DNA of 64,000 nt, taken from the NCBI GenBank assembly GCA_003427395.1, contig BFEA01000020.1, forward strand, positions 3,121,986 to 3,185,985, given 5' to 3'. Shown in pieces: positions 6,001 to 45,329 of this stretch (the first letter of the stretch is position 1; each line of letters opens with the position of its first letter). A model generated the notes under the pieces. It worked only from the letters and a program-made list of their open reading frames with translations. It was not told the origin of the DNA and searched no databases. Source of the stretch: Chara braunii (lineage: Eukaryota; Plantae; Charophyceae). Both the position numbers and the translations under genes were made by a program.

Positions 6001-6440
6001 TCTTCTTTTTATTCTTTTAGAACATAGCCGTTTTTTAGGGATCTCCCACCTACTAACCCTCCCCAAGGTTTTGCCGAAGATTACACTTATTTTTCTTATT
6101 TTTCTGTTTTGATAACTTAGTCGTTTTTATGGGGTCTCCCACCCACCAAGCCTTCCAGGGCCTCGCTGAAGATTACACTTATTTTTCTTATTTTTCTTCT
6201 TTGGGAACTATAGACCGTTTTTAAGGGGTCTCCCACACAACAACCCTCCCCTAGGCTTCGCAAAAAATTACACTTCCTTTTCTTTTTTTTTGTCGTTGGA
6301 AACTTAGCCATCAACCCTCGCTAAGGCTTCATCGAAGATTACGCTTCTTTTGTTTTTTTTTTTCTTCGGAAACTAAATTGTTTTTTTGTTTTTTTTTTTC
6401 TTCGGAAACTAAATTGTTTTTTGGTTTTTTTTTTTTACTT
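1..6440 (+). repeat. Satellite array, ~90-bp monomer (about 70 copies), runs off the left edge
   Basis: Consensus GAAGATTACACTTATTTTTCTTCTTTTTTTTCCTCGGGAACTTAGTCGTTTTTAGGGTCCTCGTCCTCTTAACCCTCCCAGGGCTTCGCC; starts at 1, 92, 182, 273, 363...; three monomer variants. The K/R- and F-rich ORFs here are repeat artefacts. Confidence 0.97.
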
Positions 6441-13524: not shown

Positions 13525-14060
13525 ATCAGTAATTTATATGAAAAGCAAAAGAAAAAGGTACCTGAAGTGCCCATAAGGTGGAGGGAAACTTGAAGCGTCA
13601 AGACCTTAAGCCCGCAATCCATTTCATCCATGCTTGGTTCTACACGGTCCCTAAAGAAAAAAAAGAAGAAAAAAAGTGTAACCTTCGGTGAAGGTTCATG
13701 GAATGTTAATGAGAGAAGTGACTTGTATGAAACGCAAAAGAAAAAGGTACCTGAAGTACCCAAAAGGTGGAGAGAAACGTGAAGCGTCAAGACCTTAAGC
13801 CCACAATCCAATTCATCCATGCTTGGTTCTACAGAGTCCCCAAAGAAAAAAAAAAAGAAAAAAATATAAGTTTAATGAGAGCAGTGACTTATATGAAAGG
13901 CAAAAGAAAAAGACATCTGAAGTGCCCATAAGCTGGAGGAAAACTTGAAGCGTCAAGACTTTAAGCCCGCAATCCACTTCATCCATGCTTGGTTTTACAC
14001 AGTCCCTGAAGAAAAAAAAGAAGAAAAAAAATGTAACCTTCGGTGAAGGCTTATAGAGTA
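13525..14060 (-). repeat. Three tandem copies of a ~170-190-bp unit containing part of the 90-bp satellite monomer
   Basis: GCAAAAGAAAAAG..A.CTGAAGT.CCCA...GAAGCGTCAAGAC.TTAAGCCC.CAATCCA.TTCATCCATGCTTGGTT at ~13545, 13733, 13900; copies 1 and 3 end in TGTAACCTTCGGTGAAGG, matching the satellite core. Confidence 0.88.
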
Positions 14061-17000
14061 GCTTAATGAGTGAACGCCCTTAAAAACGGTTAACTTCTTG
14101 GAGGAAAAAAAAGAAGAAAAAAAAGTGTAATCTTTGGCGAAGCCTTAGGGAAGGTTAATGAGTCAACGCTCTTAAAAACGATTAAGTTCCCCAATAAAAC
14201 AAATAAGAAAAAAAAGTGTGATCTTCGGCAAAGCCTCAAGGAAGTTAATACGTGAACGCTCCTAAAAACGGTGAAGTTCCAAGAAAAAAGGTGGAAGGTT
14301 GGTGGGTGGCAGACACCTTAAAAACGGCGAAGTTCCCAAANNNNNNNNNNNNNNNNNNNNNNNNNNNAAAAAAAAAAAAAAAAAAAAAAAAGTGTAATCT
14401 TCGGCGAAGCCGTGAGGAGGGTTGGTGAGTGGCATACCTTATAAAAACGGATAACTTCCCGAAGAAGAAAAAAAAGAAAAATAAGTGTAATCTTCGGCGA
14501 AGCCGTGAGGAGGGTTAGTAGGTGGGAGACTCCACAAAAACCGCTAAGTTCCCGTAGCAGAAAAAAAAAAAAAAAAAGTGTAAATTTCGGCGAAGCCCTC
14601 GGGAGGGCTGATGGGTGGGCGACCCCCTGAAAACGGCTGAATTCCCGAGGAAAAAAAAAAAAAAAAAAGTGTAATCTTCGGCGAAGCCCTTGGGAGGGTT
14701 AGTGGATGAGAGACCTAAAAAAACACAGCTAAGTTCTCGAGAAAGAAAAAGAAGAAAAATAAGTGTGTTCTTCGACGAAACCCTAGGAGGGTTTGCGAAT
14801 GGGAGACCCCCTAAAAAACGGCTAAGTTTCCAAAGAAGAAAAAAAAGAAAAATAAGCGTAAACTTCTACGAAGCCTTGGGGAGGGTTGGTAGATGGGAGA
14901 CCCCCAAAAAACGGCTAAGTTCCCAAAGAAGAAAAAAAAGAAAAAGAAGTGTAATCTTCGGCGAAGTCCTGAGAGGGTTGGTGGGTGGCAGACCTCATAA
15001 AAACAACCAAGTTCCAGAAGAATAAAAACGAAAAAAAATTAGTGTAACCTTCAGCGAAGCCTTCGGGCGGGTTGGTGGGTGGGGGACCTCCTAAAAACGG
15101 CTATGTTCCCGAGGACGAAAAGGAGGAAAAATAAGTGTTATCTTCGGCGAAGCCCTATGAGCGTTGGTGGGTGGCAGACCCCCTGAAAATGGCTAAGTTC
15201 CCAAAGAAAAAAAAAAAGAAAAATAAGTGCAATCTTCGGCAAAGCCGTGGGGAGGGTTGGTGGGTGGCAGACCCCCTAAAACGGCTAAATTCCCGAAGAA
15301 GAAAAAAAAAGAAAAATAAGTGCAATCTTCGGTGAACCCGTGAGGAGGGTTAGTTGGTGGGAGACCCACAAAAACAACTTCCTGTAGAAGGAAAAAACAA
15401 AAATAAGTATAATCTTCAGCGAAGCCCTCGGGAGGGCTGATGGGTAGGAGACCCCTTGAAAACGGCAAAAATTCCCGAGGAAGAAAAATACGAAAAATAA
15501 GTATAATCTTCGGCGAAGCCCTCGGGAGGGTTAGTGGGTGAGAGACCTAAAAAACACGGCTAAGTTTTCGAAGAAGAAAAAGAAGAAAGAAAAGTGTATT
15601 CTTCGGCGAAACCCTGGGGAGGGTTGAAGGGTGGCAGACCACCTAAAAAACGGCTAAGTTCCCAAAGAAGAAAAAGAAGAAAAATAAGTGTAAACTTCGA
15701 CGAAGCCTTTGAGAGGGCAGGTAGATGGGAGGCCCCGCAAAAACGGCTAAGTTTCTAAAGAAGAAAAATAAGAAAAAGAAGTGTAATATTCGGCAAAGCC
15801 CTGGGGAGGGTTGGTGGGTGGCAGACCCCCTAAAAATGAACGAGTTCCAGAAGAATAAAAAGAAAAAAAATAAGTGTAATCTTCAGCGAAGCTTTGGGGA
15901 GGGTTGGTGGGTGGGAGACCCCCTAAGAACGACTAAGTTCTCGAGGAAAAAAAAGAAGAAAAATAAGTGTAATCTTCGGCGAAGCCCTGGGAGCGTTGGT
16001 GGGTGGCAGACCCCCTGAAAATGGTCAATTTCCCAAAGAAAAAAAAGAAGAAAAATAAGTGTAATCTTCGGCGAAGCCGTGGGGAGGGTTGGTGGGTAGC
16101 AGACCTCATAAAAACGGCTAACTTCCCGAAGAAAAAGAAAAAAAAAAAAAAGTGTAATCTTCGGCGAAGCCGTGAAAAGGGTTAATTCGTGGGAGACCCC
16201 TAAAAAACGACCAAGTTCCAGTAGAAGAAAAAAAAAAAAAAAAGTGTAATCTTCAGCGAAGCCTTCGGGAGGGCTGATGAGAGAAAGACCCCTTAAAAAC
16301 GACTAAAATTCCCGAGGGAAAAAAAAAAAAAAAAAAAGTGTAATCTTCGGCGAAGCCCTCGGAAGGGTTAGTGGGTGAGAGACCTAAAAAACACGGCTAA
16401 GTTCCCGAAGAAGAAAAATAAGTGTATTATTCGGCGAAACCCTGGGAGGGTTGGCGGGTGGCAAACCTCCTAAAAACGGTTAAGTTTCCAAAGAAGAAAA
16501 AGAAGAAAAATAAGTGTAAACTTCGGCGAAACCTTGGGGAGGGTTGGTAGGTGGGAACCCTCCAAAAAACGGTTAAGTTCCCAAAGAAGAAAAAAATGAA
16601 AAAGAAGTGTAATCTTCGGCGAAGCCCTGGGAGGGTCATTGGGTGACAGACCCCCTAAAAACGACAAAGTTCCAGAAGAATAAAAATAAGAAAAATAAGT
16701 TCAATCTTCAACGAAGCCTTTGGGAGGGTTGGTGCATGGAAAATCTTCTAAGAACGGCTAAGTTCCCGAGAAAGAAAAGGAAGAAAAGTAACTGTAATCT
16801 CGGCGAAGATCTGCGAGCGTTGGTTGGTGGCAGGCCCCGCAAAAACGACCAAGTTTTCGAAGAAGAAAAAAAAGAAAAATAAGTGTAATTTTTGGGCAAG
16901 TCGTGGGGAGATTGAGGGTTGGCAGACCCCCTAAGAATTGCTAAGTTCCCGAAGAAGGAAAAAAAAAAAAAAGTGTAATCTTCGGCGAAGCCCTGGAAGA

Positions 17001-20000
17001 TTGTTAGCAAACCCCCTAAGAACTGCTAAGTTCCCGAAAAAAAAAAAAAAAAAAAAAAGTATAATCTTCGGCGAAACCCTGGGAGGGTTGATGGATGAGA
17101 GACTCCCTAAAAACGGCTAAGTTTCTGAAGAAGAAAAAGAAGAAAAATAAATGTAATCTTTGTCGAAGCCCTGGAAGGGTTGGTGAGTGGCACACCCCCT
17201 AAAAACGGCTAAGTTCCCAAAGAAGAAAAAGAAGTAAAAGAAGTGCAACGGCTAAGTTTCCGAAGAAGAAAAAAAAGAAAAAGAAGTGTAATCTTTGGCG
17301 AAGCCTTGGGAGGGTTGATGGATGGGAGACCCCATAAGAACGGCTAAGTTTCCGAGGAAAATAAGTGTGAATTTCGACGAAGCCTCAAGGAAGTTAATAA
17401 GTGACCTAGTTCTTAAAAAAAGAAGAAAAAAAAGTGTAATCTTCGGCGAAGTCCTAGGGAAATGTGATGACTGAGCCCCCTAAAATTAACCAAGTCTCCG
17501 AAGAAGAAAGAGAAGAAAAATAAGTGTAATCTTTGGCGAAGCCCTGCGGAGGGTTGGTAGGTGGCAGGCCCCCTAAGAACAAATGAGTTCCCGAAGAAGA
17601 AAAAATAAAAATTGTAATCTTTTACGAAGCCCAAGAGGGTTGTTAGGTGGAAACCCCCTCAGAACTGCTAAGTTACCCAAGAAAAAAAAAAAACCCAACA
17701 ACAAGTGTAATCTTCGGTAAAGTCCTGGAGGCTTGGTGGGAGAAAATAAGTGTAATCTTTAGCGAAGCCTTCGAGAGGGCTGATGGGTGGGAAAACCCCT
17801 GAAACCGGCTAAATTCCTGAGGAAGAAAAACAAAAAAAATAAGTGTCATCTTCGGCGAAGCCCTCGGGAGGGTTAGTGGGTGGGAGACCTAAAAAACACG
17901 GTTAAGTTATCAAGTAAGAAAAAGAAGTGTATTCTTCGGCGAAACCCTGGGAAGGGTTGACAAGTGGCAAATCCCCTAAAAACGACTAAGTTCCCAAAGA
18001 AGAAAAAGAAGAAAAATAAATGTAAACTTCGGCGAAGCCGTGGGGAGGGTTGGTGGGTGGCAGACCCCCTAAAAATGGTTAACTTCCCGGAAAAAAAAAA
18101 AAAAAAAAAGTGTAATCTTCGGCGAAGCCCTCAGGAGGCCTGATGGGCGGGAGATCCACTGAAAGCGGCTAAATTCCCGAGGAAGAAAAATAAGAAAAAT
18201 AAGTGTAATCTTTGCCGAAGCCCTCGGGAGGGTTAGTGGGTAGGAGACCTAAAAAACACGGTTAAGTTCTCGAAGAATAAAAAGAAGTGTATTCTTCGGC
18301 GAAACCTTGGGGAGGGTTGGCGGGTGGTAGACCCTCTAAAAACGGCTAAATTCCCAAAAAAGAAAAAAAAAAAAAAAAATTGTAAACTTCGACGAAGCCT
18401 GGGAAGATTTGGTACGTGGGAGACCTAAAAAAAATGGTTAAGTTTTCAAAAAAAAAAAAAAAAAAAGGGTAATCTTCGGCGAAGCCCTGGGAGGGTTGGT
18501 GGGCGGCAGACCCCCTAAAAACGGCCAAGTTTCAGAAGAATACAAATAAGAAAAATAAGTGTAATCTTCGGCGAAGCCTTGGGGAGGGTTGGTGGGTTGG
18601 AGACCCCCTAAGAACGACTATGTTCCCGAGGAAGAAAAAAAAGAAAAATAAGTGTAATCTTCGGCGAAACCCTGGGGAGCGTTGGTGGGTGGCAGATCCC
18701 ATAAAAAAGACTAAGTTCCGGAAGAAGAAAAAAAAAAAAAATAAGTGTAATCTTCGGCGAAGTCCTGGAGGGTTGGTGGATGGGAAACCCCCTAAGAACG
18801 ACTAAGTTCCCGTAGAAGAAAAAAAAGAAAATAAGTGTAATCTTTAGCGAAACCCTTGAGAGGGATGATGGGTGGGAGACCCTCTGAAAACGGCGAAATT
18901 CCCGAGGAAGAAGAAAAAAAAAAAATAAGTGTAATCTTCGGCGAAGCCCTCGGAAGGGTTAGTGGGTGAGAGATCTGAAAAACACGATTAAGTTCTTGAA
19001 GAAGAAAAAAAAATGTATTCTTCGGCGAAACCGTGGGTAAGGTTGGCGGGTGGCAGACCCCTTAAAAAGGGCTAAGTTCCCAAAGAAGAAAAAGAAGAAA
19101 AAGAAGTGTAAACTTCGGCGAAGCCTGTGGAGGGTTGGTAGGTGGGTGGCTCCCAAAAAACATTTAAGTTCCCCCCCCCCCAAAAAAAAAAAAGAGTAAT
19201 CTTCGGCGAAGCCCTAGGGACGGCTGGTGGGTGGCAGACCCCCTAAAAACGGCCAAGTTCCAAAATAATAAAAATATAAAAAATAAGTGTAATCTTCGGC
19301 GAAGCCTTGGGGAGGGTTGGTGGGTGGGAACCCCCCTAAGAATGGCTAAGTTCCCGAGGAAGAAAAAATAGTGTAATCTTCGGTGAAACCCTGGGGAGTG
19401 TTGGTGGGTTGCAGGCCCCATAAAAACGACTAAGTTCCGGAAGAAGAAAAAAAAGAAAAATAAGTGTAATCTTCGGCGAAGCCGTGAGGAGGTTGGTGGG
19501 TGGCAGACACCCTAAGAATTGTCAAGTTTCCGAAGAAGAAATAAAAAAAAAATGTAATCTTCGGCGAAGCTCTGGGAGGGTTGGCAGGTGGCAAACCCCC
19601 TAAGAACTGCTAAGTTCCCGAAGAAAAAAAAAAAGTAATCTTCGGCGAAGCCCTGGATGGGAGACCCCCCAAGAACGGCTAAGTTCCCGGGGAAGAAAAA
19701 TAATAAAAATAAATGTAATCTTCGGCGAAGCCCTTGGGAGGGTTGGTAGGTGGCAAACCCCCTAAAAATGGTTAAGTTTCCAAAGAAGAAAAAAAAGAAA
19801 AAGAAGTGTAACGACTAAGTTCCCGAAGAAGAAAAAAAAGAAAAAGAAGTGTAATTTTCGGCGATGCCCTGAGGGGGGTAATTTCCGACCGCCTAAGAAT
19901 GGCTAAGTTTCCGAACAAGAAAAAAAAAAATGAATTTTGACGAAGCCTTAAGGAAGTTGATAAGTGAACGGTCCTAAAAAATGTTAAGCTCCCCCCCCCC
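14030..20000 (-). repeat. Second array of the same ~90-bp satellite, inverted (about 65 copies)
   Basis: AAGTGTAATCTTCGGCGAAGCCCTGGGAGGGTTGGTGGGTGGCAGACCCCCTAAAAACGGCTAAGTTCCCG is the reverse complement of the array-1 monomer, closest to the variant at 5850-6330. Confidence 0.96.
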
Positions 20001-21579: not shown

Positions 21580-22550
21580 GGATACCAGGGAACAATAATA
21601 AAGCAGATGGGCTGAGCAGGATAAATTGGGACAGGACGAAAGGCCATGTGCATGAAGGATCGTCGCCAGTAGATGACTTCCTGGATAAGGAAGAGGACGT
21701 GATGGTCCATATCAATGCATGGTCTGCATCAGTGGAGGAAATGGTAACACCTATGTGGATTACCCCTCAAGGGTATGAACGAAGAGAGGACATAGTCCTC
21801 AAACCGTTCGTAGAAGAGGATCCCTGGGGTGAGCAAGGGGTGGAATGGATGATGGAGTTGGCTCTCGTTGGGACTCAAACGTTGTGTGAAGAGCCATCCA
21901 TAATTGAAGACGGACTACTCCAGGCAGAAAGACACAAAAGATTGATCGGGGGAATGTATGTCCTGGTGAATACCCTAGTCCAAGATGAGGCCGCAATAAT
22001 AGATGCTTAGGAGTGTGAGAAAGAGAAGGGAGGAGACCAAGAGGAGGATGAGGAATTTGAGGAAGAGGAGATAAAGGAGGCATTCCAAGAATATGAGTAT
22101 GAAGGGATATACCTAAACCTAGAGTTGCTCCTTTCATGCGAAATAAGGAAGACAGAGGCAAGTCAGAGGGCTCTCAAGATGCGTCCGCATTTTCTGGTAA
22201 GGGACGACCATCTATTTATGTGAGGAAGAGGAGGTGAGCCCAGAAGGGTGATCTGTGGCCGTAACAGAAAAATTGATGTTATTGCTGCGCTACATGATGG
22301 AAGCGCAGGTGGCCATAAAAGTAAAAATGTCACCTTTGGATAAATATATGGACTTTATTTTTGAGAAGGAATGAGAGAAATGATTCGTATGTATTATGAA
22401 TCTTGTGTACAGTGTTAGGAAAGATCGTTTGTCAGGTATAAAGAACCACTTCACCCAAGATATGTACGAGAGGTTGGGGATGTGATTCATCTCAATCTGT
22501 TAATGATGCCATTGGGGGTAGGAGGATATAACTGTATCTTCGATGCACGG
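21580..22550 (+). pseudogene. pol: Gypsy pol fragment: RNase H C-terminus, linker, integrase H2C2 zinc-binding domain, start of catalytic core
   Basis: IPGNNNKADGLSR (RNase H end); ALHDGSAGGH...ESCVQC (HHCC); PLHP...GDVIHLNLLMMPLGVGGYNCIFDAR; several in-frame stops. Confidence 0.9.
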
Positions 22551-23758
22551 TGTAGAGCGCATCGACCCTCGCTTAAAAACGAGGGCCCTCCCGGCCATGT
22601 CACGCAGGAGTTTACCTACAACAGAACTTCAAAAGAAAACTCGGGAACGACGCATAACTTTCCGCGAGCCGCCGAGATGGACGAGGTTGCATCGCTCCTT
22701 CGCCGCTCTAACTGGGTGCGCCAACTGTACTTCCCACGGTCCCCTACGACAGGACAGGTTCCCACGGGGCATAAGCTTGCATCCCTAAGGGGCTGTCACC
22801 ACCCTTAGGGCGTATCCCTACCGAACTACTGATTCACGTGCGAAGGCTTTTAAATGCAATCGCAGAGGTAGATCAGCCGAGGGCTTTTGCTCGTCTCGCT
22901 GCAGTATAGGAATTGTTTCACTAAACGCCGAATGAACCCGAGCGTCGTTCGTTCCATGGGGCGCTGATCTCCCAAGACGAAGCGTACGCCGGTCAACTAG
23001 GACAGTCTCAACCAAGCGTGAAAACGATCCTTGGTCCCTAGCAATCAAACAACAAGAATCTCCATGCCTTAAAACAAAATCACACAATCCAAATCATTGG
23101 CTTGATGAGCTGGTCTGCCAAAGTGTCCCTTTTCAACCTGTATGACTGAAATAACTCTTATACTGTCACTCAATGATTTTTAATTGAAGACATAAATTAA
23201 GACAGACCCTACAATCATGACAGTTGAAGTTTGTCATAAATAATTTCTGCAAGTAAATACCACTGGTACCATGCAGATCAACAAGTGATTTGGTTCTTGA
23301 TCAATGTTTGAACTCTCGGTTCGACCACGTTTCCGTACCATAAGCAACTACTTGGAGGAGCGAGTGACAACTTTGTTGGTCGCTTTGTCCTCCTGGACAA
23401 TAATTACTCTTTTTGTTTCATGAATGATGGAGTATCCCTCTTCAATGCCAAGTTGCTTAAAACGAAAGGTTCTGTCTTCTGTTGCTTTGTCATCGTCATT
23501 ACACATGACATATTTTTCAACGTTCGTTTTTTATTCAACTTATTTTTATGCGAACGATTACCCCTCAATACATACGCATGATAGTGAAATCATCGGGCTA
23601 ATCCGAATACTATCCATCCGGTGGTCCTACCTACATAAAGTGTTTTGTCTTTGTTTTTAGATTACCTCGTGAAACCATAAATTATATGGTTTCCTCAACG
23701 GGACTGAGTCCATGCGAGGTGTTTTATGAAATCTGAGTAAAATTTCAGAAGACAATGT

Positions 23759-24295
23759 CTAATCCTGGTAGATCTGTCGCCCGTTGCGTACCTGTGCCTC
23801 CAACGAATCCAGACGCGTCAGCTCGTCGTCGTCGCAAATCAGAGTAGACATTCGTCCACATCGCATGACTCTAATAATCCGAGTATTATAGAAGGAGGTC
23901 ATCCGAGAGGTTAGTCTCCAAACTATAACTCAGAGAGGTGGACTAAGTCGAGTCTCTATCCCGGATCCGGACGACGCCGAAACGTCTACCGGACGAGGTA
24001 ATCTTGATACTCACAATGACTCGAGAGAGACATTGGAGATACTCACGCGGTGGAAATACAACGTATAACCGTAAAGCTTGTTGGAAGTTCGAGCCGTGTT
24101 GACTCTGAAATCCTCGCGAGTGTTAGGGAAAAATCCCTCGTCATTTCGAAGCAATCCAATGAAGCCGATCAATACGGTAGGAATACCATCTCGAACTCGT
24201 AAAAGTCGCTCTGCACTCCTGATAAGATCCTCCTCGGGCGTATCGCGAACCAACAGGTACCTTGGGATTGTCAAATCTCTTCGAGCTCCAGGCAT
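23759..24295 (-). pseudogene. Second orphan ORF in the solo LTR (~178 codons) with two in-frame TGA stops
   Basis: MPGARRDLTIP...SLESL*VSRLP...SPPL*VIVWRLTSR...RQIYQD*; both stops could be CGA>TGA decay; the ATG directly follows CTGACTTTGTTCTAATATGCAG. Confidence 0.5.
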
Positions 24296-24319
24296 CTGCA
24301 TATTAGAACAAAGTCAGAA

Positions 24320-24832
24320 TTAGTCGCGTTGATATTGCTCTGTTTCCTCCGCCTCAGCCTCCAATTCATCATCATATAATGGCTCGATGTCTACGATTGC
24401 GAACCTATTGACTCGTACCCGTTCTGCAAAATATATACCGAAGAAATACCCTTGTCGATCATTTAACCAAAGCACGTACCCAACGAACATCAACCTTATT
24501 TCCGCGGTTTCATCCACCCGTGGGTTGATCTCATATGACTGCAATACCACCAAGTTCATATTGACGAAGTGACGCTCGGGCAATGGCAGCGTGAACTCGT
24601 AATGAAGAACATCCAAGCCGGCCAGTCTCCTGAAAATAAGTTGTTTGGGAGGTCTTTGCGCACTTCCATCCCAAAACTGCGGAACGTCCTCCTCAGAGTA
24701 CAACTCTGACGAATTGTAAACAAGTCGGCCTATCCTCTCTACCCTTTCTCCATTACGCCTCTGGAGTTCGACCCTTTCAGCCGCCGAATCGCGGTCGTAG
24801 AAAAGGAACAAGTCCGAGGATCCCATAGCCAT
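24320..24832 (-). CDS. Intact orphan ORF (170 aa) inside the solo LTR
   Basis: MAMGSSDLFLFYDRD...acidic tail DDELEAEAEETEQYQRD; the ATG directly follows an acceptor-like TCTTTCTTTTTTCTTTCAG; no family recognised. Confidence 0.6.
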   Translation of the reverse strand: MAMGSSDLFLFYDRDSAAERVELQRRNGERVERIGRLVYNSSELYSEEDVPQFWDGSAQRPPKQLIFRRLAGLDVLHYEFTLPLPERHFVNMNLVVLQSYEINPRVDETAEIRLMFVGYVLWLNDRQGYFFGIYFAERVRVNRFAIVDIEPLYDDELEAEAEETEQYQRD

Positions 24833-25122
24833 CTGAAAGAAAAAGAAAGACAAATGTGTTTTAAGTTAACTCTTGCCCAAAGAGTATTATTCGGTTTTTG
24901 TGTTCCTTACAGTCCGTGCTTCTTATGACACGACCACCCACGTCAGGAGTATCTAACTTTACTCCGTTCAACTAGTAGGACATGAGTCATGCTGCTTGTG
25001 ACACCAACTCTCCATACGTCAGTGGTACCTAAGATGACCACTTAAAACAGGGGTGCTAAAGCAGTTTTCTTTTTACGCAAGGCGTCAAGAAATAACTTTG
25101 TTCCGTGTAGATGCCTTTTCCA

Positions 25123-25296
25123 TTACCCTAAGAGGTGGTCTGGGATACTCCTCTTCCTCGCCCGAGTATAAATCTCGAATCTCAGAAGTCGGGCCGTCTC
25201 TACCGAATCGGCATAGTACCCCTTCGCAAAACGGTCCACTATGAGTCGATAACAGGGCCGACCCCTAAGGCAACGAACCCCTGCCCCAGATGCCTC
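25123..25296 (-). CDS. Possible terminal coding exon (57 aa, no own ATG) in the solo LTR
   Basis: Acceptor-like TTGCTTTCCCTTTTTTTTAG, then open frame EASGAGVRCLRGRPCYRLIVDRFAKGYYADSVETARLLRFEIYTRARKRSIPDHLLG*. Confidence 0.3.
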   Translation of the reverse strand, partial: EASGAGVRCLRGRPCYRLIVDRFAKGYYADSVETARLLRFEIYTRARKRSIPDHLLG

Positions 25297-26089
25297 CTAA
25301 AAAAAAGGGAAAGCAACTACACGGCAGACAAGAAGAATCTTGTTGCCTAACGTCAAAAGTAAACTTGGATGAAAAAAAAAGAATTCATAGAAAGATAGAA
25401 TCATTCAGACTGACAGGCATAGACGGGAAAAGGGTCATTCGGGAAAGAATGGGTAACCTAAGGGATAAGTCTAAATACAATTGAACTTTTCTTCCTTGTG
25501 CTCACTTCGTTTCTCGTCATCCTCTTTCTTTTTTATTTATACATAGAACACAAACACAAAGATGAAAAAGTGAACCATTCTTTCACCGTCATCACCCTCA
25601 TCCATTTCAGTCCACATGTCGTACCTGTAGTCAAAACCCAACGACACACAGACCACCATGCATTCCTTTACCATTGTAAGAATCCCAGTCATACACGCAA
25701 GAACACACATCCTCTTCCCTTTTTCAATGAACATTCAGTGAAACAGGTCAAAGCAAGTGAGGGTTCACTCAGGTGTGAAGGGAACTGAGTCAATTTAACC
25801 GACCTTGAGTGACGCTGAAATGAAGATAATAACGGCTCACTCAAGAAAACCGTATAAAATTACGCCCCTTTGTCAAGAGACGGTTGTCTTCCAGTCATCG
25901 ACAAATAATCCACACCACTCCTTTCACCACAACCACCTGTCACAACGCCTCCTCACTATGTTTTCCAATGAGTGTCACTGCCACTGACTTCTACTGTTAC
26001 CGCATCACCATGCCGTCAAAATTCACACCATCTCAATCCTCCACTTCAGCGATACCTTCCCTACACCAAGGTCCGGCTGCCGCTAAATG

Positions 26090-26525
26090 TGGAACTTCTA
26101 CCGCCGGTAACCTTGCGTTGCCGCCGTAGAATTTTCACAGCCCTTCCGCACCACCGCTGGTAAGACCGGAGTCACCGCCGAAAAATTTAGGCATCTCTTT
26201 CGCACCACCGCTGATAAAACCGTAGTCGCCGCCGTAGAAATTTTGCAGCACTTCAGTACCACTGCAGTAAAACTTGTGCCGCCACTGCAGAAATTCGGCA
26301 GCACTTCGGCACCACCGCAGTAAAAACTTGTGCCGCCGCCGCAGAAGTTTTGCAGCACTTCGGTACCACCGCAGTAAAACTTCTGCCGCCGCTGTAGAAA
26401 TTCGGCAACACTTCGGCACCACCGCAGTAAAAACTTGTGCCACCGCCGCAGAAGTTCGGCATCACTTCGGCACCACCGCAGTAAAAACCAGGACTGCCGC
26501 TGTAAAATTCCGGCAGCACTTCCCT
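26090..26525 (+). repeat. ~53-54-bp minisatellite (about 8 copies, two related half-units)
   Basis: CACTTCGGCACCACCGCAGTAAAAACTTGTGCCGCCGCCGCAGAA.TT..GCAG at ~26249, 26303, 26356, 26410, 26463, with more diverged copies upstream. Confidence 0.92.
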
Positions 26526-27926
26526 ACTATAGTGGGAAAATGGCAGACCAAAATTGGTAAAATTTGGGCCCCGGGCCCAAATCTCACAGCGCCGCACTGC
26601 CGCAGTCCCGCAGTACCACTGGGTCTGTCCCGTGGGACCAACACCAACCAAAGGAGAGAAGCAAAGTGCTCCTTGCCTTAGCTATGGCTGCCCAGTCTTC
26701 CTCTTCGCGCTCCTCTGCAGACCTCCAACTTCTTCTCCTTGCCTCAGGCAGCACCTCAGCAGCCCAGCAGCACTCAAATGCACGTCACACAATGACAACA
26801 CGAATGCTTTGTGAGGCAGCCGGGGGCAGCTGGCTGTTTTATAGTGGCTGAGGAGGGCTGGTCGTCACTCCAGCCCCCAGGCAAAATCGCGGGCTCACTG
26901 TGAGCCCTTCATCTGCCAAGATCCAAGGCTGACTGTGGCCGCACGACAACCACAACCTTAGTGTGGGGCGGTTTTTTTAACTGCTCTATTTTATTTTTCT
27001 TTTTCTTTTTCCCAGCTATCTCGGAATCTAGCGAGATAGCTACGCTCCTGCCATTTCCAAATATGTTTTTCTTTTATTTTTCTAATAAAGGGTTGAAAAG
27101 ATACAACCCTTTTCAGTTTGATGTATCTGGACCTTTTTTCCAGGGTAGATACATCGAGGAAAAAGGCTGTATCTAGCCTTTTCCTTAGTGGCCCTTTAAT
27201 TTCCAGGCTCCCTTCAAAAATGGGAGCCTGACAGTTACCTCTGGCAGAAGCACCACGTGAGGACAAGTGTCCTCACACTAAATAAAGAAAGGAAAAGAAA
27301 AAAAACTAACTTCCTAAATTCTACCGCACCTGGCTTTTACCTTGGCCAGGTGCATGCTGTTGCATACAACAACCCCCTTCCTTTTTCTCTGCTGTCCTCC
27401 CCTGAAAACGGGGAGGCAGTTGGCAAGTTGGGAGGAGTAGGTCCTCCCCCGCCCAACTCCCATGCCCCTCTCTCTGTCTCTCTCTCCCACGCGAGTACTG
27501 TGAGCCACGAGATTCAAGATCTCGTGGCCAGAGTGAGTAGGCAAAAAAAACGAAGTGGAAGCTTTTATGCTCCCACACAGTCCCAAGGACTGTTCTAGTC
27601 CTACCACGAGGCAGTTGCCTCGTTTTCGTTTTCTTTTTCTGCTTTTTTTTTTTTTTTTTTTTTTTTACAGTTTTTCAAGTTTACTTCGCTTCTTAGTCCT
27701 TTCCCGTTGCTTTCCCTTCTGGCTGTACTTCAACGGCCACGAACGGGGAGGAACAAAACAACAACAAACAAACAAAAAAAAGCAGAAAAACAAATAAAAA
27801 AAAACTTACTTGAAATTGTTGTCTGGCGGCCGCAGCAACAACAGTGGCCTTGACCACTGCTCATGACTGTATTCTTCCACGTTTCCGCGGAAGATTCATT
27901 CGATTTTGATCATCCTATACGTGGTG

Positions 27927-27996
27927 TGTAGGTAGGTAGGTAGGTAGGTAGGTAGTCTTTTTCTCCCTCTCTCTCTCTCTCCCTCTCTCTCTCTCT
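27927..27996 (+). repeat. (GTAG)n followed by (CT)n microsatellites
   Basis: Direct observation, just upstream of the hammerhead. Confidence 0.9.
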
Positions 27997-28048
27997 GTCA
28001 CGCGCGCCCGTACCTAGACGTTATTAGCGTTGGGTTCAGGTGCAATGG

Positions 28049-28106
28049 TAGACTGTCGAGGCTGCAGCCTCCCGATGAGTCGGTGAAACCCTGACGAAAC
28101 AGTCTG
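28049..28106 (+). ncRNA. Type III hammerhead ribozyme motif with a U4>C core variant
   Basis: Stem III AGACTGT/ACAGTCT; GTC cleavage triplet (cut after 28057); stem I GAGGC-TGCA-GCCTC; core CCGATGA; stem II GTCGG-TGAAACC-CTGAC; GAAA. Confidence 0.85.
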
Positions 28107-29381
28107 GCACAAGTTACCCGTTCGTTCAAAACAAACGGGTGTCCAAAAAAAAAAGGAAGAAAAATAACGGAAAAAAAAAAAAAAAATCTAAACTGAATCT
28201 AAGAAAANNNNNNNNNNNNNNNNNNNNNNNNNNNNNNNNNNNNNNNNNNNNNNNNNNNNNNNNNNNNNNNNNNNNNNNNNNNNNNNNNNNNNNNNNNNNN
28301 NNNNNNNNNNNNNNNNNNNNNNNNNNNNNNNNNNNNNNNNNNNNNNNNNNNNNNNNNNNNNNNNNNNNNNNNNNNNNNNNNNNNNNNNNNNNNNNNNNNN
28401 NNNNNNNNNNNNNNNNNNNNNNNNNNNNNNNNNNNNNNNNNNNNNNNNNNNNNNNNNNNNNNNNNNNNNNNNNNNNNNNNNNNNNNNNNNNNNNNNNNNN
28501 NNNNNNNNNNNNNNNNNNNNNNNNNNNNNNNNNNNNNNNNNNNNNNNNNNNNNNNNNNNNNNNNNNNNNNNNNNNNNNNNNNNNNNNNNNNNNNNNNNNN
28601 NNNNNNNNNNNNNNNNNNNNNNNNNNNNNNNNNNNNNNNNNNNNNNNNNNNNNNNNNNNNNNNNNNNNNNNNNNNNNNNNNNNNNNNNNNNNNNNNNNNN
28701 NNNNNNNNNNNNNNNNNNNNNNNNNNNNNNNNNNNNNNNNNNNNNNNNNNNNNNNGAGCAGCTCTTCAATATGAAGAGCTAGCCCAGGTGATTTCCCTGC
28801 CTGCGGCCTTGCAGGCTCCGCCCGTATGTGGCCTAGCAGGCCTGCCCCGGCTATGGCCTAGCAGGGCTACCCTGCCTGTGGCCTGCCGTTTACCTGCCCG
28901 TGGCCTACCCATACCGGTTAGCCGCGTGACCACGGCTTGGTCGGCCATCGAACCGGGTAAGCCTTGGCATTTGCCTATCGGCTCCCAGGCTCGAAGTCAG
29001 ACCCCGCAGCCCTAAAAAAAACAAATGCTTCCTACACCTCCTGCGTTGTGGCCCTATACTCCGGCGCAACCCTCTTTTTAGCCCATTTAGGCCCTGAATC
29101 ATAGGTAGGATAGGTTTAATTTTAACATTTCTTTATCCGCACATTCCTGCGGTTTTGACAATTCGTAGCCTTGTCGTTCACATCCGATACCTCCGGACGT
29201 CACATGCGTCCGGACTAAGTCCGAAAACTCTTAGTTTCTCAATCATAGGTCAAGTCGGAATAAACTTTTGGCAGACGTCAGTCTCATCAAGACTATTATT
29301 TCAACGCAAGAGTCGGACAACGTCCGACGTTCAAAAACACCGGCAAATACCCTTGTCAAGGTTTTTGCCCCGACATCACGG

Positions 29382-30170
29382 AACAACGTCACGAGCTTTG
29401 TAGACGACAGGGTCATACACTCTAAGACTGGTGAGACAATGGCCCAATCCATTGAAGAGTATTACCTCCGATACCCGTTTGTGGTGGAGTTTCTAATGGA
29501 CAGGGGGTCAGAGTTTACTTGTAAAGAAGTGAAGATGCTCCTAGACGAATATGGGGTAACTGTGAAATATACGACTGCAACACATCCCAAAGCGAATGCG
29601 TCAGTGGAAAGATGACATAGTACACTTACGAACCTCCTTGCGAAGTGGACAGGCGGAAGATTCATTCAATGGCCGAAGTATTTGAGGGCAACCTTCTTTG
29701 TGGAAAATGCGACTGCTAAATGAATCACGGGGTATGCGCCAGCAACACTTTGGTATGGGAGGCACGCGACATTTCCAACCGAAAGCATCCTAAAGACTTG
29801 GAGACGGCAAGACCTCGAGACTAATTTGTCATTTGAAGACCTTCTCGATTTAAGAGCACGCCAAATCGGAGCTACGAAAGATAGAATCAGGGATGTGGCT
29901 AACAAATCAGCAAATAGCTGCACCGCAGATAAGTTCACGTGAGATTGATTGACGCGCGTTCGAAGAGAGCCATTAAAGGTTGGAGATATTGTATTGTTGT
30001 ATGACTCCTCGTTAGAAAAGCAATGGTCCCGAAAGCTCGACAAGAGATGGCTCGGACCATACAGGATTGCCCGTTGTGGAGACTATGGATAATATCAGAT
30101 TGAGGAACCGAACAGGACGACACAAAAGGACTGGGTGTCATGAGGCAAATTAGCAAAATTTGTAGCACAG
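29382..30170 (+). pseudogene. pol: Remainder of the element A integrase (catalytic core and GPY/F region)
   Basis: FLMDRGSEFT, HPKANASVER, WPKYL, TGYAPATLWYGR, KVGDIVLLYD, RWLGPY; in-frame stops. Confidence 0.92.
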
Positions 30171-30310: not shown

Positions 30311-30355
30311 ACTGATTCCCTTGTGTGCGTCTTGTTTTTCTCGCTTGTTCTGCAG
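30311..30355 (+). promoter_or_regulatory. Predicted 3' splice site upstream of the extra ORF
   Basis: CTGAT branch-like motif, long pyrimidine tract, TGCAG; ATG at 30366. Confidence 0.6.
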
Positions 30356-30365
30356 GCGTAACTTT

Positions 30366-32759
30366 ATGAAGACGACCATGCCGAAGGGTGGGAGGGACAA
30401 ACAGCCTCAAGAAGGTCCAGGAGGCGGGGAATCATCACGATCACATCAGCGAGACAACACTCCAATCTATGACGATGGTAGCCCAGATATGTTCATCGAG
30501 CAGTTCACGCGGCATGCGACAGACAGAGGATGGTCAAAGGGAACGATGATCCAACATTTGAGGGGTACGGGAGAGATGGGAGAGAGGATTGAGGAGTTGT
30601 GGACGCAAGGAGGGAGCTGGTTAGAAATAGAGGTGGGATTGCGGTTGCTGCAGCCATCACCGATAGGACTTGATGGGTTGCCCATTTGTATGACTGCAGA
30701 CAATCTGGACGAGTTCTTTCCAGCATATGAGGAGCACTGCAGGACAGTGGCCGTCATGAGAGAAGAGTACATGAGGAGGTCCCACAGTGGGCAGTGCCTG
30801 GGCTACGGAGAGACATCGCCCAAATTGGGCGTGCGGCGCGAGACTGGGAAGACTGCAAGGCCCAGATAAGGAGTGTCTGTGGGTTGTTTCGACACGACTC
30901 TCCAAGACCGCGAGTCGAGAGGAGGAGGAGGAGTGATTGAGTACGTGGCAGGAAGGAGACAATCTGTCTCTCGCCGATATAGAGAGGTCATTGATTTGGG
31001 GGACGATAGTCCACCTTTGTCAACCATTCACGAGACTGAGCCAGAGAGGAGAGTTACCCCTGAGAAGAAACATGAAGTGAGACCTGTTGTAGAAACTATC
31101 CTTGAGCTGGGGGACCGACCAAAGGCAGAGATGTTGGAGGAAGCGCGACCGATTGCGAATTTAGAGGAGTTGGAGACCCATTCGGAACCATCACAGTGAC
31201 CGTCGTCAGAGGCTGTTCCTGCCCCCACATCAGATGCGGCCCCTAGCAGTGTGGAGGCCGACAGAGTGATCGACACGCATCTTACGGCTGGGTTGGCATC
31301 ATCGGCAGGGGTTGCTAAGGCACCATCAACGGGTTCACCCAGAAAAGGGGCTCAAACTGAGCTAGTGGTATGTTGGGGAGCTCAGACCGAGCCAGTGGTA
31401 TGTGGGGAGACCCAATGACGAACCAGTCATCAGGCAAGGGAGACCCTACAGGAGCGTCAGGCCAGGGTAAAGGAAAGACTCGAGGAATTGGGAAGAGAGA
31501 AAGATAGGCATGAGGCAGCAGAAACACTACCAGACCCACCAGCAGATATGGGGTCGCAAGAGAGAGGAGTAGAGGCAATCTGGGCTAGATGGCTGGAGCA
31601 GAGAGACGCAGATCGTCAGAGACCTCAGGGCTTTGAATTTGTGGACATGAGGCTGGATCGTCGAGATGAGCTGATGGATTCTAGTTTTGTAGCAGCACGA
31701 AGGGCAGATCAGCGTTTGGAAGAGAAGATATGACGGCTTGCAACAACCTCTTTCGATAGGTACTCGATGTTGAGTGCTAAGTTGCAAGCACAAAAGCTAA
31801 AGATGGAAAGTCTGACCAAGCGATTGGAAAAGGTAGAGGCTGAAAACAAGTAACAGAAGGCGGCAGCCCAAGCAAAGGATGCTGAATGGGAGAGAAGACT
31901 TTGAGAGATGGAGGCGAAGATGGAGAAGTTCCAATCCACCACAGTGGTAGACTAGACCGAGCAAAGCAGGTACGACGTCCAAGGTCAAGCACTGGATGGT
32001 CTGTTTGTACAGAAGAAGGGGACGAAACCATCTCAATATCAAGGTTTGGGTAAGGTGATTATGGATCCTGCCGAGGCTAAGGCAAAGAAAGAAAGGGAGA
32101 AGGGAAACTTTGAGTTAAAGGCCCCAACAAAATTGGCCTCTCAGTTACCAATGCCTATGCAGAAGGAGGGAACGGTGGGAGAGAAGGCTCAAGTACCTAT
32201 GACAGAACCAGGGGAAGGGCAAGCAATGGAAATAACTCAGGCACCTGAGCCAGAACAGGTAGAGAGATCTTTAGACAGACTACTAGAGGCGCCCATGGAG
32301 AGGTTGATGTGCTTACCTACCTCAGCCACGGTCAGTGCACCTACCCACACACTAGGAGAGGAGGGTGCATATGGGACAGCGGCGAAGATTTGGTTAGGGA
32401 TGCCACTAGGGTTGCCCGAGAGTACGATGAGTCCTACGCTGACCATGGAGAAGGAGAGCCAGCCGTCAGAGAGGGATCTTCCTGAGATTGTTGCCGCAAG
32501 TGCTATGGAGGTAGATGTTCCCCTGGAGACGCCACAGAGGCTGGACACCCCAGAGTATGTACCACCGCTTGGCAAGCCTGGAGAGGGGATGAACTCATGG
32601 TTGGCGGGGGCAGCCATGGGAGAGTCGGTACCCATACCGACACAAGAGGGAGCCACGACCCAGGCGACAGATGCCCTCTCATCATCAACCCCTCATGAGA
32701 GGAAGAGAAAGAGGATAAGGAAGCACGAACGGGAACAGAAGGTTGCAGGCCCAAGTTGA
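30366..32759 (+). pseudogene. Extra ORF downstream of integrase (env position): Gag-capsid-like N-terminus, coiled coil, E/P-rich tail, basic C-terminus
   Basis: Fragments 30321-30869, 30873-31199, 31488-31733, 32046-32759; PIYDDGSPDMFIEQFTRHATDRGWS resembles retrotransposon Gag motifs; KRKRIRKHER at the end; no obvious TM segment. Confidence 0.65.
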
Positions 32760-34870: not shown

Positions 34871-37800
34871 TGTAGGCGTGAATACCCTTACAAGGGTATT
34901 CATGCGCATATTTGCACTTCACATAATTAGTGTCTGAGGCGATACTAGAAGCTATAATTTATATATAAGTATCACGCGGCCCACGCTCGACTCATTTTTA
35001 ATCGAACCATGGGGCGTGCGGGGGGAGAGTAGAGAGTGTGTGGGCGTGCAGTTCTGAGACGCGCGTGATGATTTTTATCTTGATATTATAGAGTCGGCGT
35101 TTCCGCCGACAAAATTTTAATTTTTGATTAAAGCTAGGAAGGGTTTTCTTTTATTGAAGTGATCGTGGTGCGTCTATGCTCATACAGATGGTGTCATCGG
35201 CAATGGTATTGCCTTTGAGCGATAATCGAACATGTGAGAGGAAATAGATCGCGAACAAGGGCTTTCGCATGGTGGACGAGGAAGCTTGGCGGTCGTGGGT
35301 TCGGCTGATAGGTCGAGGTGTGGCCTTAGAATGTTTCGGTAGACCTGTATGTCGCGTGGTAACCGCTTATATAGGTGTCCGCTAGTGTCAGACTCAGCCT
35401 TGGGTCTAACACTACTGGTATGGTAACGAACATTCATTCAAGGGATCCATGGATTGAGATCAGCACGGCAGCACAGGAGCAGTGGAGCGGCGAGGAGGAA
35501 CTTGGGGTTGAGGGTCTGGCGGGGTTACCCCACCTTGGTTTTGCTATCAACAAAGACGGAGCAAAACTGGCGGTCCCTTTTTCTCGTCGGTCGTTTCCTG
35601 ACGATTAAAATCTTTCTAAATATTTTACTATTTACCGTCGTACTATTATTATTTTTATGCTTCGACTTTCCTAGAATAGGATGTAACAATGGAATACGGG
35701 CCGTTAGTGCCCGTCACGACAGTCGAGGACCTTGAGCAAATGCCTCTTTTGACGGGCCCGTTCGGGTTCCTACGTATTCAGGATGCTGGTGAAATCCCTT
35801 TATCCCGCCCGTCTTGGAACGAGGACCGAGAAGCTCAACGTGCATGTGAGCCGGTGGGTGATTAGCTGACGAGGCGGAGTAAACCTGAGTGGCAGGGACC
35901 CTCCGCGAGGACACCGTCCGCCAACCTCAATCTGATGAGAGAGGTTTGAATCTGGGCATGACCCGTCCCACTTTTTGTTGTGTGAGGTTTGAGTATGAGC
36001 ATGCCCTTTGAAACTCGAAAGACGGCGAATGGTGCTAAGGCATAGTGGCGGAGGGCGTAGATTGTGCACATCTGCGCACATAGGATCCTTCCCCACTTCA
36101 GTTTTCAGAAGTTCCCATTTGAATCTTTGCTGCCACCACCAAGATCTGCACCGGGACCCACTTCACTCAGGCTTATGCTGCAGACTTTGCAGCAGGCCCT
36201 CGCCCTTCTACTCATTGGGGCGTCGGAATCAATGGCGCTGAAGCACCCGACTTATGCTCCGAGGCTGGCTAGGCAACCAGCAGCCTGGTACAGTTGGTAC
36301 ACCTATGAACTGTCGAAAATACAGACCGAAAGTTTACCACAAATATCATATTTTTATTATTTATTTGTTTTATTTATCTTCGTTCACTAAAAATTTTTGT
36401 GCAAGATTTGTGGACGGCGCCATGTGACCAGCGGAGTACCAAAGTGTTATTGCTCCAAACGGCCAGGGCCTTGTCCCATCTGAAAAGGTACGGCGGTGCG
36501 ACCCCTTGGAATCCGGAAGATGGTGAACAGTGTCGTGGGCACAGTCTGCCCAAAGGCACCAGTGGGAGGCTGCCGAGGTGTTTGCTGTGTGGCAGGCTGT
36601 CTCGGAAGTTGTGCACATGGAACCCTTACCCACACTTCGGTCTTCGAAGTTTCTTTTGAATATTTGCCTACCGCCACCAAAATCTGCGCTTGGAACCCGA
36701 AAGATGGTGAACTGTGTCGTGGGCACAGTTCAACAGAGGGCACCAGCTAGAGGCTGCCGCAATGCTTGCTGTGTGACAGGCTGTCCCGACAGCTGGTAAA
36801 CAAGGCATGAGCATAAAAGGGTCACGGGTACTGCGGTAAAAACCCGCAGCGATGCTGATCTGTAAATTGTCCTTCGGATCTGGGTATAGAGCGGAAGACT
36901 ACTCGAGCCATTTAGTTGTTGATTCCCTCTGAAGCTTCCCTCTGGGTAGCCGGAGCTGAAGCGAGATGCAGTCTGTGACTGCATGATCCACCAACCACGA
37001 TCTGCTGTGAGAGGTTTCAGTAGGGTAATGCCCGTTGGGCACAGTGGCGGAGGGTGCAGATTGTGCGCAGCCACTTACATGAGACCCTCTCCACTTTGGT
37101 CTTCAAAAATTCCCATTTGAACATTTGGTTACGACCACCAAGATTTACATTAGGGCTGGCCTACCGGTGCTCATGCTGCAGGTTCCGCAGCAGGCCCGTG
37201 CCCTCGATCCCGCGACGTGTGTTTGAGTCTGTCCGTTGAAAATTCGGAAGGGTGTAAGCTCTGCCTGAGCAGAGCTTGACCTGAGGCGCAGTGGAATAAG
37301 CGTGCAGTAAATACGGGCGAAAAACTAGTCGGACGGCGTTCTCTTCGGAGTTTTTCCCCAGATTGACTCAAGCCGCCAAACAACCTTCACTAGATCGTCG
37401 GGCGGTGCGCTACGAAGAAAGACTAATGGGAGGGACGCAAAGTTGTGGGGGCGTGAGCAACAGATCGAACGTGGATGTGTAGAAGAAATAGTGATAGTAT
37501 AGAGAGAGAGGAAGAACGAATTAGAGAAGAGAGGGGTAGCGCAGGAGAGCGCGGCAAGACCGGAAGGAAAACAATAGAGACAATGACGAAGGAAGAACGA
37601 ACTTGGATGCAGTTTCGTGCCAGGTACGTTCGAAGAAAGGGGGAGGAGACAACGTTGGAGCCAGAAGCTATGGCGGAATGAAAAGTTACGGCGTGCTCGT
37701 TTCCTGATAAACTCAGGCAAGACAAGGTGGTAAGTTGGGGTTTTTCTGTGTGACAAACTGATCTGAGGCATCAAATTTGGGTTCTAGAAGGCGGATTGAC

Positions 37801-38100
37801 CACTACCAGAATAATAAGTTGTGTGCGAAGGAATCGAGAGCAGAAGGAGAACGAAAAGCAAAGGGGGAAAAGGTTATAACTCACTCATTTCTCGACAGAA
37901 TCGAGTATGGTAAAAGGCTAGACGGGGGTTTTGGGACATGGCGAAGAGATTGGCAGTACCGGATTTCGATTTTGGGCAGCAATTTGGCTAGTGTGAACAC
38001 AGAAGGTTAACGACACCTATTTTTTTCATTATTCTAGGAACACTCGGTTGACAATCCTGATTTCTACGAGTTCAGACCAATGTTTTCACTAGCATTCTTG
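34871..38100 (+). repeat. LTR (U3 part), same superfamily as the other two giant LTRs; 3' end not found
   Basis: Starts TGTAGGCGTGAATACCCTTACAAGGGTAT versus TGTCGGTGCGAATACCCTGACAAGGGTAT (minus strand from 52509); GTGTG.GCG...AGTTC..GACGCGCGTG is shared between 35036-35075 and the reverse complement of 52322-52365. Confidence 0.75.
35780..37290. pseudogene. Mosaic of degenerate LSU (25S/28S) rRNA fragments in both orientations
   Basis: Sense: CCCGTCTTGGAACGAGGACC (cf. CCCGTCTTGAAACACGGACC), ACCCGAAAGATGGTGAACT, GGGTATAGAGCGGAAGACTACTCGAGCCATTTAGT. Antisense: CCACTTCAGTTTTCAGAAGTTCCCATTTGAATCTTTGCTGCCACCACCAAGATCTGCACCG at ~36093, related copies at ~36612 and ~37070. Confidence 0.85.
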
Positions 38101-38149
38101 AAAAGTTTTAAGATTTACATTGTTGGTATGGTGCCCCGTTTACGGAGAG

Positions 38150-44200: not shown

Positions 44201-44996
44201 TCTCCTCCTCACCGTAGTCTTCTTGCTTGGTCTCTTCGTCCCCTACCTCCTTTCCCCGACTTTGGACTACGGTTACCACCTTTCTCTGTACCTCAGCGTC
44301 ATTGCCATAGCCTAGCTCCGCAAGCACGTCCGTGACAATCCTTTTCACTCCCGGGGTTCCAGATGCAGAAGCGTCCCTCTCCTTTTTCTTCCTCCTCTGC
44401 AAGCGCATCTGACACTGCTCTACCTGGTCCAGACTCTCATCTTCTACTCCCTTATCAATGGTGGCCCAGGTGAGTTTTGCACTACCCCCTCCATGGCTCG
44501 TCAATTCTGCAGCCTCTGAAGCAGTGAGCAACCCCCAAAAAATGGTGCACTGCGCTTCTTCTGAGATCCCATGAACCTTCCTTGCCTTTTTCTTAAATTC
44601 TTGAAAAAACGTCCCTACCGTAGTGAAGTCGTCCTTGTTCATGGCTTCGAGATCTGCGGTGGTCAGCAACCCATCGCCCAGCCTATACTTGCGCTGCATG
44701 CCATCTCTAAACCTCGCCCAACTGTCATTGGCCGTATTTATGACCTTCTCGACTTCTTGATGATGACCATGAAGTACGTACTTCAGAATGCGCTGAAATT
44801 TTATCGCATCTGACAACCCCACCAACGCTTGCTCCACCAAATCCAACCAATCTGAAACCCTTTCTCCGCTGAAGTGGAAGGCATCAACCTTCAGGATATT
44901 GCTTGGCGTTTTCTCATGTCTATCAATGGCTGCAATGAGGTCCTCAAGTGTCAGGACCTTTCTTGTACCATCCACTAAGCCACCAGACTCCGGCAT
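41251..44996 (-). pseudogene. gag-pol: gag-pro-RT(N-terminal) polyprotein of element B, with stops and frameshifts
   Basis: Gag FHFSGERVSDWLDLVE; RGG/Q-rich region; CWYCGNTGHTI*FC knuckle; protease AMVDTCAEMNII...ILPGRSFL; RT IHTVPHEPW...SPWFCFIKSNRTLRWVQDL; homology ends near 41251. Confidence 0.93.
41830..41836 (-). promoter_or_regulatory. Predicted -1 frameshift heptamer T_TTT_TTA between protease and RT
   Basis: The protease frame reads CTT TTT TTA and stops 15 codons later; the -1 frame reads FSGRLKQGSQRRYKTVDKK towards RT. Confidence 0.65.
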
Positions 44997-45311: not shown

Positions 45312-45329
45312 TCCCCGGCAACGGCGCCA
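45312..45329 (-). promoter_or_regulatory. Primer-binding site (tRNA-Asp type, as in Athila-like Gypsy elements)
   Basis: Minus strand TGGCGCCGTTGCCGGGGA, 2 nt after the LTR end ...CGCTCGACA. Confidence 0.88.

Follow-up and report, generated by a model that had tools for sequence, protein, structure and literature searches.

Do the long terminal repeats (LTRs) of a retrotransposon in the alga Chara braunii carry small genes of their own, and could these genes be expressed by splicing? The question is raised by a 64,000-nucleotide stretch of contig BFEA01000020.1 (the window), in which an original prediction placed three tandem orphan reading frames (A, B, and C) on the minus strand of an LTR, each directly behind a splice acceptor to which one leader would be alternatively spliced. 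The three acceptor strings are indeed present, with AG|GAG before 25296 and AG|ATG before 24832 and 24295.

A giant LTR within an older integrase

The reading frames lie in an insertion of 6,825 nt (including 548 N) with TG..CA ends, running on the minus strand from 29375 to 22551, which interrupts the integrase of an older element. The insertion and its site comprise the following features.

22551..29375, minus strand: giant solo-type LTR with TG..CA ends; its termini match those of the primer-binding site (PBS)-flanked LTR at 52509-45332
22545..22550, plus strand: left target-site duplication, GCACGG
29376..29381, plus strand: right target-site duplication, TCACGG; 5/6 identical to the left copy, with the inner 5 bp perfect
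22080..22550, plus strand: integrase of the host element, pre-insertion part (P0034 residues 219-375)
29376..29543, plus strand: integrase of the host element, post-insertion part (P0034 residues 374-429; Pfam rve, E 3e-6)
28208..28755, no strand: assembly gap of 548 N within the insertion

The alignment to P0034, an integrase-containing Chara protein, has a 2-residue overlap across the insertion point. The insertion thus shows TG..CA termini and a 5- to 6-bp target duplication, and it has its termini in common with the neighboring LTR at 52509-45332, next to which lie a PBS and gag: likeness is 68% between the last 300 nt of the insertion and the end of that LTR, and 77% between the first 43 nt and its start at 52508. 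Because these ends match a PBS-flanked LTR of 7.2 kb, we class the insertion as a solo-type giant Ty3/gypsy LTR, the Ty3/gypsy label being given by association, since no internal domain is attached to the LTR itself and it is the neighboring elements that display the domain order gag, protease, RT. No internal domain was found between the LTR ends among the called bases, the 548-N gap lying inside the insertion. Apart from the 43-nt terminal motif, the first 619 nt of the LTR do not recur in the window; therefore, the ORFs lie within the LTR, and no short 3′ LTR starts after them. The placement of the ORFs in the LTR is thus borne out by the termini, the target duplication, the split integrase, and the nonrecurring first 619 nt. 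The LTR that contains the ORFs may be solo, or it may be the 3′ end of an element concealed in the 548-N gap.

Neighboring elements

A second giant LTR lies in the same window.

52509-45332, minus strand: second giant LTR (element 2), ~7.2 kb, followed by a PBS and gag; TATA-like site at 49242 with short repeats behind it

The acceptor-headed ORF cassette is absent from this LTR, which shares only its last 300 nt and the terminal start motif with the cassette-bearing LTR. A PBS at 45329, which we take to be complementary to tRNA-Asp, abuts the element 2 LTR, and the gag at 44996 gave 41 matches, all of them named Chara braunii proteins. A strong acceptor on the minus strand (45022-44996), 26 nt before the gag ATG, suggests that the gag mRNA is spliced from a long LTR leader.

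Element 3 (63203-58780, minus strand) has a tandem array of orphan ORFs upstream of gag, of 139, 103, ~250 (broken), 123, 112, 109, and 91 aa. An acceptor sits 2 nt ahead of the ATG of the first of these, and a duplicate of the ORF at 60477 lies near 59700-59350 (z 26). On the plus strand, the region after the host integrase (30340-32759) holds a 167-aa orphan ORF with an acceptor 10 nt ahead, and then broken frames and an ORF of 232 aa; it constitutes a sense 3′ extra-ORF region without a Pfam match. From 34871 onward, also on the plus strand, there is a third LTR-like start with the TG..ACAAGGGTAT terminal motif common to both giant LTRs. Two pairs of tandem arrays in opposite orientation (90- to 93-bp and 88-bp units) occur at 1-6200 and 13600-19950, and at 38080-40830, as long imperfect inverted repeats. 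A degenerate large-subunit rRNA fragment is located at 36697-36921 (plus strand), and no tRNA gene was found in the window.

An intact frame behind the top-ranked acceptor

Read on the minus strand, the LTR contains, in order, a TATA-like site at 26844, a 54-bp array, acceptor A, then acceptors B and C, each with its own ORF behind it, a 60-codon stretch, and the LTR end.

26837..26844, minus strand: TATA box-like CTATAAAA, predicted promoter with an inferred start at ~26810
26120..26522, no strand: 54-bp tandem array of ~7 copies, located in what is predicted to be the leader or the first intron
25127..25312, minus strand: acceptor A (AG at 25298-25297) and a 170-nt probable exon with 57 open codons, ending in a donor-like GG|GTAATG (25127|25126)
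24833..24856, minus strand: acceptor B, a pyrimidine tract and CAG, with a branch-like TTAAC 37 nt upstream
24320..24832, minus strand: ORF-B, intact, 170 aa; acidic (net charge −13), without a transmembrane stretch and without a homolog
24296..24319, minus strand: 24-nt spacer with acceptor C (branch-like CTGAC/CTAAT, CAG)
24011..24295, minus strand: ORF-C, 94 open codons; 44/1,000 shuffles score as well
23759..24010, minus strand: ORF-C continued in the same frame, interrupted again by a stop at 23932-23930; resembles B weakly from end to end, with stops read as X
23348..23530, minus strand: fourth coding-like stretch, 60 open codons, with no strong acceptor; 7/1,000 shuffles score as well; RNA peak in runs X1 and X3

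When the 446 minus-strand AGs were ranked by an untrained pyrimidine-tract score, the AG before ORF-B came first, that of A third, and that of C 12th; on the plus strand, two AGs in T-runs outscored acceptor B. AG|ATG occurs six times in 22541-28207, where the two best-scoring sites open frames of 170 and 94 codons, against 2 to 19 codons at the remaining four. A 170-codon ATG frame alone arose in 12 to 58 of 1,000 simulations. An acceptor score of at least 7.5 combined with an ATG and at least 170 codons was never obtained in 1,000 simulations under each of five Markov models, nor were two acceptor-headed frames of at least 94 codons, these models under-producing long pyrimidine tracts.

As originally predicted, ORF-B (24832-24320) is an unbroken frame of 170 codons. 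Under a codon model built from eight retroelement ORFs of the window, none of 1,000 shuffles scored as well as ORF-B in codon log-odds, and the frame beat its own five other frames, which have 4 to 11 stops each. With its top-ranked acceptor, its coding-like codons, and a joint pattern seen in 0/1,000 simulations of each of the five null models, ORF-B looks like a genuine coding frame. The original prediction had further set this intactness against the decay of the neighboring pol, an argument that fails: the stop-ridden pol (5 stops in 327 codons and 6 in 261) belongs to the older host element, on the strand opposite to the LTR ORFs. The intactness of ORF-B is consequently no sign of selection, and the LTR is not dated by pol.

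No homolog of ORF-B was detected among 187 candidates from a word-indexed search or in 1.84 billion representatives, and its best score in the Atlas, 0.79 for a YolD-like lead, was below the useful range. No Pfam family matched A, B, or C at E ≤ 1, and PF10536, PF04195, and PF03078 gave no match to any of them. A single-sequence AlphaFold model of ORF-B reached a pLDDT of 38, and Foldseek returned no match at E ≤ 0.001, a blank that is uninformative given so poor a model. No transmembrane segment of the env-like kind was found, the highest 19-residue hydropathy being 0.69 in ORF-B and 1.46 in ORF-C. We infer that ORF-B encodes a soluble, acidic, beta-rich protein that is not env-like; as no relatives were found and the models are unusable, its function can be assigned by analogy only.

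Across the whole window, 10 pairs of an acceptor and an ORF of at least 80 aa passed the same filter. They comprise B, C, the host 3′ ORF, the gag of element 2, and the first extra ORF of element 3, together with five in tandem arrays or antisense. The acceptor-to-ATG distance is 10 nt for the host 3′ ORF at 30366, 26 nt for the gag at 44996, and 2 nt for the element 3 ORF at 63203. Since acceptor-headed ORFs recur in the retroelements of the window, spliced expression is plausible.

Frames A and C and a fourth stretch

Of the three tandem frames proposed, B stands intact, whereas C is broken, and A has no ATG, only 57 codons, and a donor-like end. ORF-C does not encode 178 aa as had been written, as a TGA at 24013-24011 ends the frame after 94 codons and the 178-aa reading crosses two TGA. 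Its acceptor is, as described, in a 24-nt gap (24319-24296) behind the stop of ORF-B. Among RNA reads of run X2 near 24039, within ORF-C, 7 of 11 differ in length by one base from the window copy, and thus a single-frame 178-aa reading of C may fail in other copies. ORF-C had no Atlas match, and its structure model reached a pLDDT of 41.

Frame A lacks an in-frame ATG and is not coding-like (386/1,000 shuffles score as well); the sequence called “ORF-A” more probably represents a leader exon of 170 nt, or else a duplicate of B that has decayed. A single spliced A+B protein was rejected for the window copy, because splicing from the donor-like site would not join the open frame of A to B in phase, and the frame of A that would be in phase contains a stop. 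Among three candidates for the 60-codon stretch at 23530, none was a homolog of greater length. Overall, the LTR copy in the window is old, with no more than two ORFs, of which one is intact and the other broken, and a probable leader exon.

Possible relatedness of A, B, and C

When aligned collinearly from their acceptors, the DNA of A and B gave z values of 3.2, 3.9, and 3.6 over 170, 250, and 430 nt, respectively. The best-matching window of the LTR for ORF-B is the start of A; a GC-rich window at 26612 equals the best score of A. At the protein level, no likeness between A and B was seen, with 33 of 40 shuffles scoring as well. The B and C proteins, with X at stops, aligned end to end at z 4.0 (BLOSUM62) and 3.2 (BLOSUM45), and five control frames gave p values of at least 0.18. 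BLASTP returned an E value of 0.2 for B and C, a pair picked after ~80 pairwise tests, so that a B-C duplication is suggested at most. Taken together, the alignments suggest that an old series of tandem duplications gave rise to A, B, and C. Likenesses noted by eye between A and C, and between C and the element 3 ORF at 62779, were not significant (p 0.08-0.6). Among the extra ORFs of element 3, the tandem duplicate (z 26) is clear.

RNA reads and further copies

Four of 17 listed RNA runs (X1 to X4) were aligned to 22300-28200 at 80% likeness, the share of the run read being 6, 12, and 13 in 100 for X1, X2, and X3, respectively. No near-identical sequence was found among the 17 RNA runs listed. 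Reads at least 99% alike over the aligned stretch numbered 0/1,486 in X1, 6/4,864 in X2, and 0/2,334 in X3; most reads were <90% alike and hence derive from diverged copies. The majority fall on a hammerhead repeat.

28050..28105, plus strand: type III hammerhead-like motif (44.4 bits versus a gathering score of 48.5, E 2e-6), beside microsatellites and the N gap

In each of the four runs, RNA signal was deepest, by a wide margin, on hammerhead-related motifs, whose flanks varied and which possibly represent an abundant retrozyme- or Penelope-like RNA family in the alga.

X2 reads reached both strands in 29 of 30 bins. One-directional peaks, which would correspond to minus-strand RNA if, as we assumed, the libraries are stranded, appeared in X1 and X3 at 23285-23481 and near exon A. 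Over ORF-B, mean depth was 0 in X1, <2 per direction in X3, and 1 to 5 on both strands in X2. The nine joints listed include no canonical splice to any of the three AGs, read depth over both B and C being too low for a test; the joint at 25296 has the ends CT..AA. One X4 contig aligns over 25128-25299 only, that is, from the donor to the acceptor of exon A, and another breaks exactly at 25296. These contig ends hint at use of exon A, although a diverged intron would look alike. Read differences in ORF-B among the matches listed (three rows, with 736 others) were one synonymous and two nonsynonymous, which is uninformative. No transcription start site was mapped in the RNA data for 22300-28200. 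In metagenome contigs, 180 pattern matches yielded no confirmed second copy, and an exact 30-nt pattern had no match.

Proposed expression of the cassette and alternative explanations

On balance, we favor reading the LTR, with its intact 170-codon ORF and broken second ORF, as a likely accessory-gene cassette with a leader spliced to B or C. The leader would be made from the predicted LTR promoter at 26844, and exon A (25296-25127) would form a noncoding leader exon, perhaps as a decayed tandem duplicate of the B unit. The leader would then likely be spliced to either acceptor B or acceptor C, yielding separate short mRNAs, and each small ORF would accordingly be the first on its own mRNA. 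By analogy with retrotransposon extra ORFs alone, the ORF-B protein might be a soluble accessory factor that aids the RNA or the replication cycle of its own element in trans. Because the cassette is inside the LTR, solo LTRs would retain the promoter and the ORFs together. We put forward as tentative, and as a good deal more doubtful, the wider proposition that the 7-kb LTR of a Chara Ty3/gypsy family is an operon-like unit, in which a promoter, a leader, and tandemly duplicated acceptor-headed accessory genes of a new protein family are selected in active copies and remain expressible from solo LTRs after loss of gag-pol.

A, B, and C might instead be the remains of exons captured or duplicated from a former gene and carried passively in the LTR leader, with an acceptor and a coding bias that are fossils and no protein made or selected now. 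We consider this unlikely, yet it would account for the broken state of A and C, for the scant RNA over B with reads mostly <90% alike, and for a related neighboring LTR that has no cassette; at the rate of ORF-C (2 stops in 178 codons), we estimate that ORF-B would have stayed stop-free ~15% of the time without selection. However, no donor gene was found in any protein collection searched, and the units begin with AG|ATG rather than in mid-frame, which is a better fit to independent genes than to internal exons.

It is decidedly improbable that the ORFs are real but located in U3, with a promoter downstream of them and expression from the 3′ LTR by splicing from the 5′ leader across the element, as MMTV sag, itself in U3, is reportedly spliced from a 5′ leader across its whole element. 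A start at ~26810 would, we infer, make R plus U5 ~4.3 kb and so an unusually long first cDNA piece, and no start site was mapped. A scan for TATAAA nevertheless found the sole clear site upstream of the cassette at 26843 and none below 24437, and the TATA-like site of the neighboring LTR is similarly placed, 3.9 kb from the 3′ end.

A chance coincidence of T-rich tracts and one long open frame in a noncoding LTR appears very improbable: the 170-codon frame alone does occur in 1 to 6% of simulations, the acceptor score is ad hoc, and stronger tracts are present on the other strand without an ORF, but the joint pattern was seen in 0/1,000 simulations under all five null models, the codon use of B was equaled in 0/1,000 shuffles, and a second AG|ATG unit follows immediately behind ORF-B. 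Scarcely credible is an insertion that is not one LTR, with the ORFs in an internal or nested segment and further sequence concealed by the 548-N gap (28208-28755), which sits beside a probably nested hammerhead repeat in an LTR of which no second copy was found, given that nothing from the ORFs to the 3′ end repeats the first 619 nt of the LTR, that X2 reads from related copies reach 29/30 bins, and that the neighboring LTR is also ~7 kb.

Comparison with known systems

Plant retrotransposon extra ORFs are mostly without known origin or function. In PMC6317226, PMC7264820, and PMC11963269, extra ORFs of plant Ty3/gypsy elements (eORFs, aORFs) are chiefly those of the OTA superclade (Athila, Ogre, and Retand); according to PMC7264820 and PMC6317226, they are heterogeneous, occupy the internal region 5′ or 3′ of gag-pol, and have no known function. 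Spliced expression has been reported for the env-like ORF of Bagy2 (PMC7264820), as have LTRs of 1.9 to 6.5 kb for Ogre (PMC6431247) and antisense ORFs for Retand (PMC11963269). The Chara elements resemble this group in their orphan, heterogeneous ORFs beyond gag-pol, their very long LTRs, and their tandem arrays. Unlike OTA eORFs, which lie in the internal region and often carry PF10536, PF04195, or PF03078, the ORFs described here are inside the LTR, in tandem, and each behind its own acceptor, with none of these domains and no transmembrane stretch, and ORF-B, at 170 codons, is shorter than the 250-codon eORF cutoff of PMC6317226.

A further comparison is with retrozymes and hammerhead-bearing retroelements (PMC4918200). 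As in these, a type III hammerhead-like motif is found inside the LTR. Unlike theirs, the motif lies on the strand opposite to the cassette, of which it forms no part; it scores below the gathering threshold, has an altered core, and is probably nested, and an intact sense-strand hammerhead was not seen in the LTR. A literature search by title and the start of the abstract, covering few subscription journals, found no spliced ORFs in a plant or algal LTR.

Complex retroviruses have multiply spliced accessory genes, and MMTV sag and HIV nef are LTR encoded, in U3. An LTR-encoded or spliced accessory comparison is also offered by CERV of Caenorhabditis elegans Cer1 (PMC10309623). Like retroviral accessory genes and CERV, the cassette has coding sequence in the LTR and small extra genes that are predicted to be reached by 3′ splice site choice from one leader. 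Unlike retroviral accessory genes, its ORFs are downstream of the TATA-like site rather than in U3, there is no env and no homology, and the splicing is predicted. If the cassette is real, it would be doubled in each full element and persist in solo LTRs, such that dead elements could supply protein in trans. Such a cassette would also go some way to account for giant LTRs, and would widen the range of retrovirus-like gene expression to include a streptophyte alga. Overall, the spliced LTR cassette, with its splicing and function putative, is likely a variant on the extra ORFs of plant retrotransposons.
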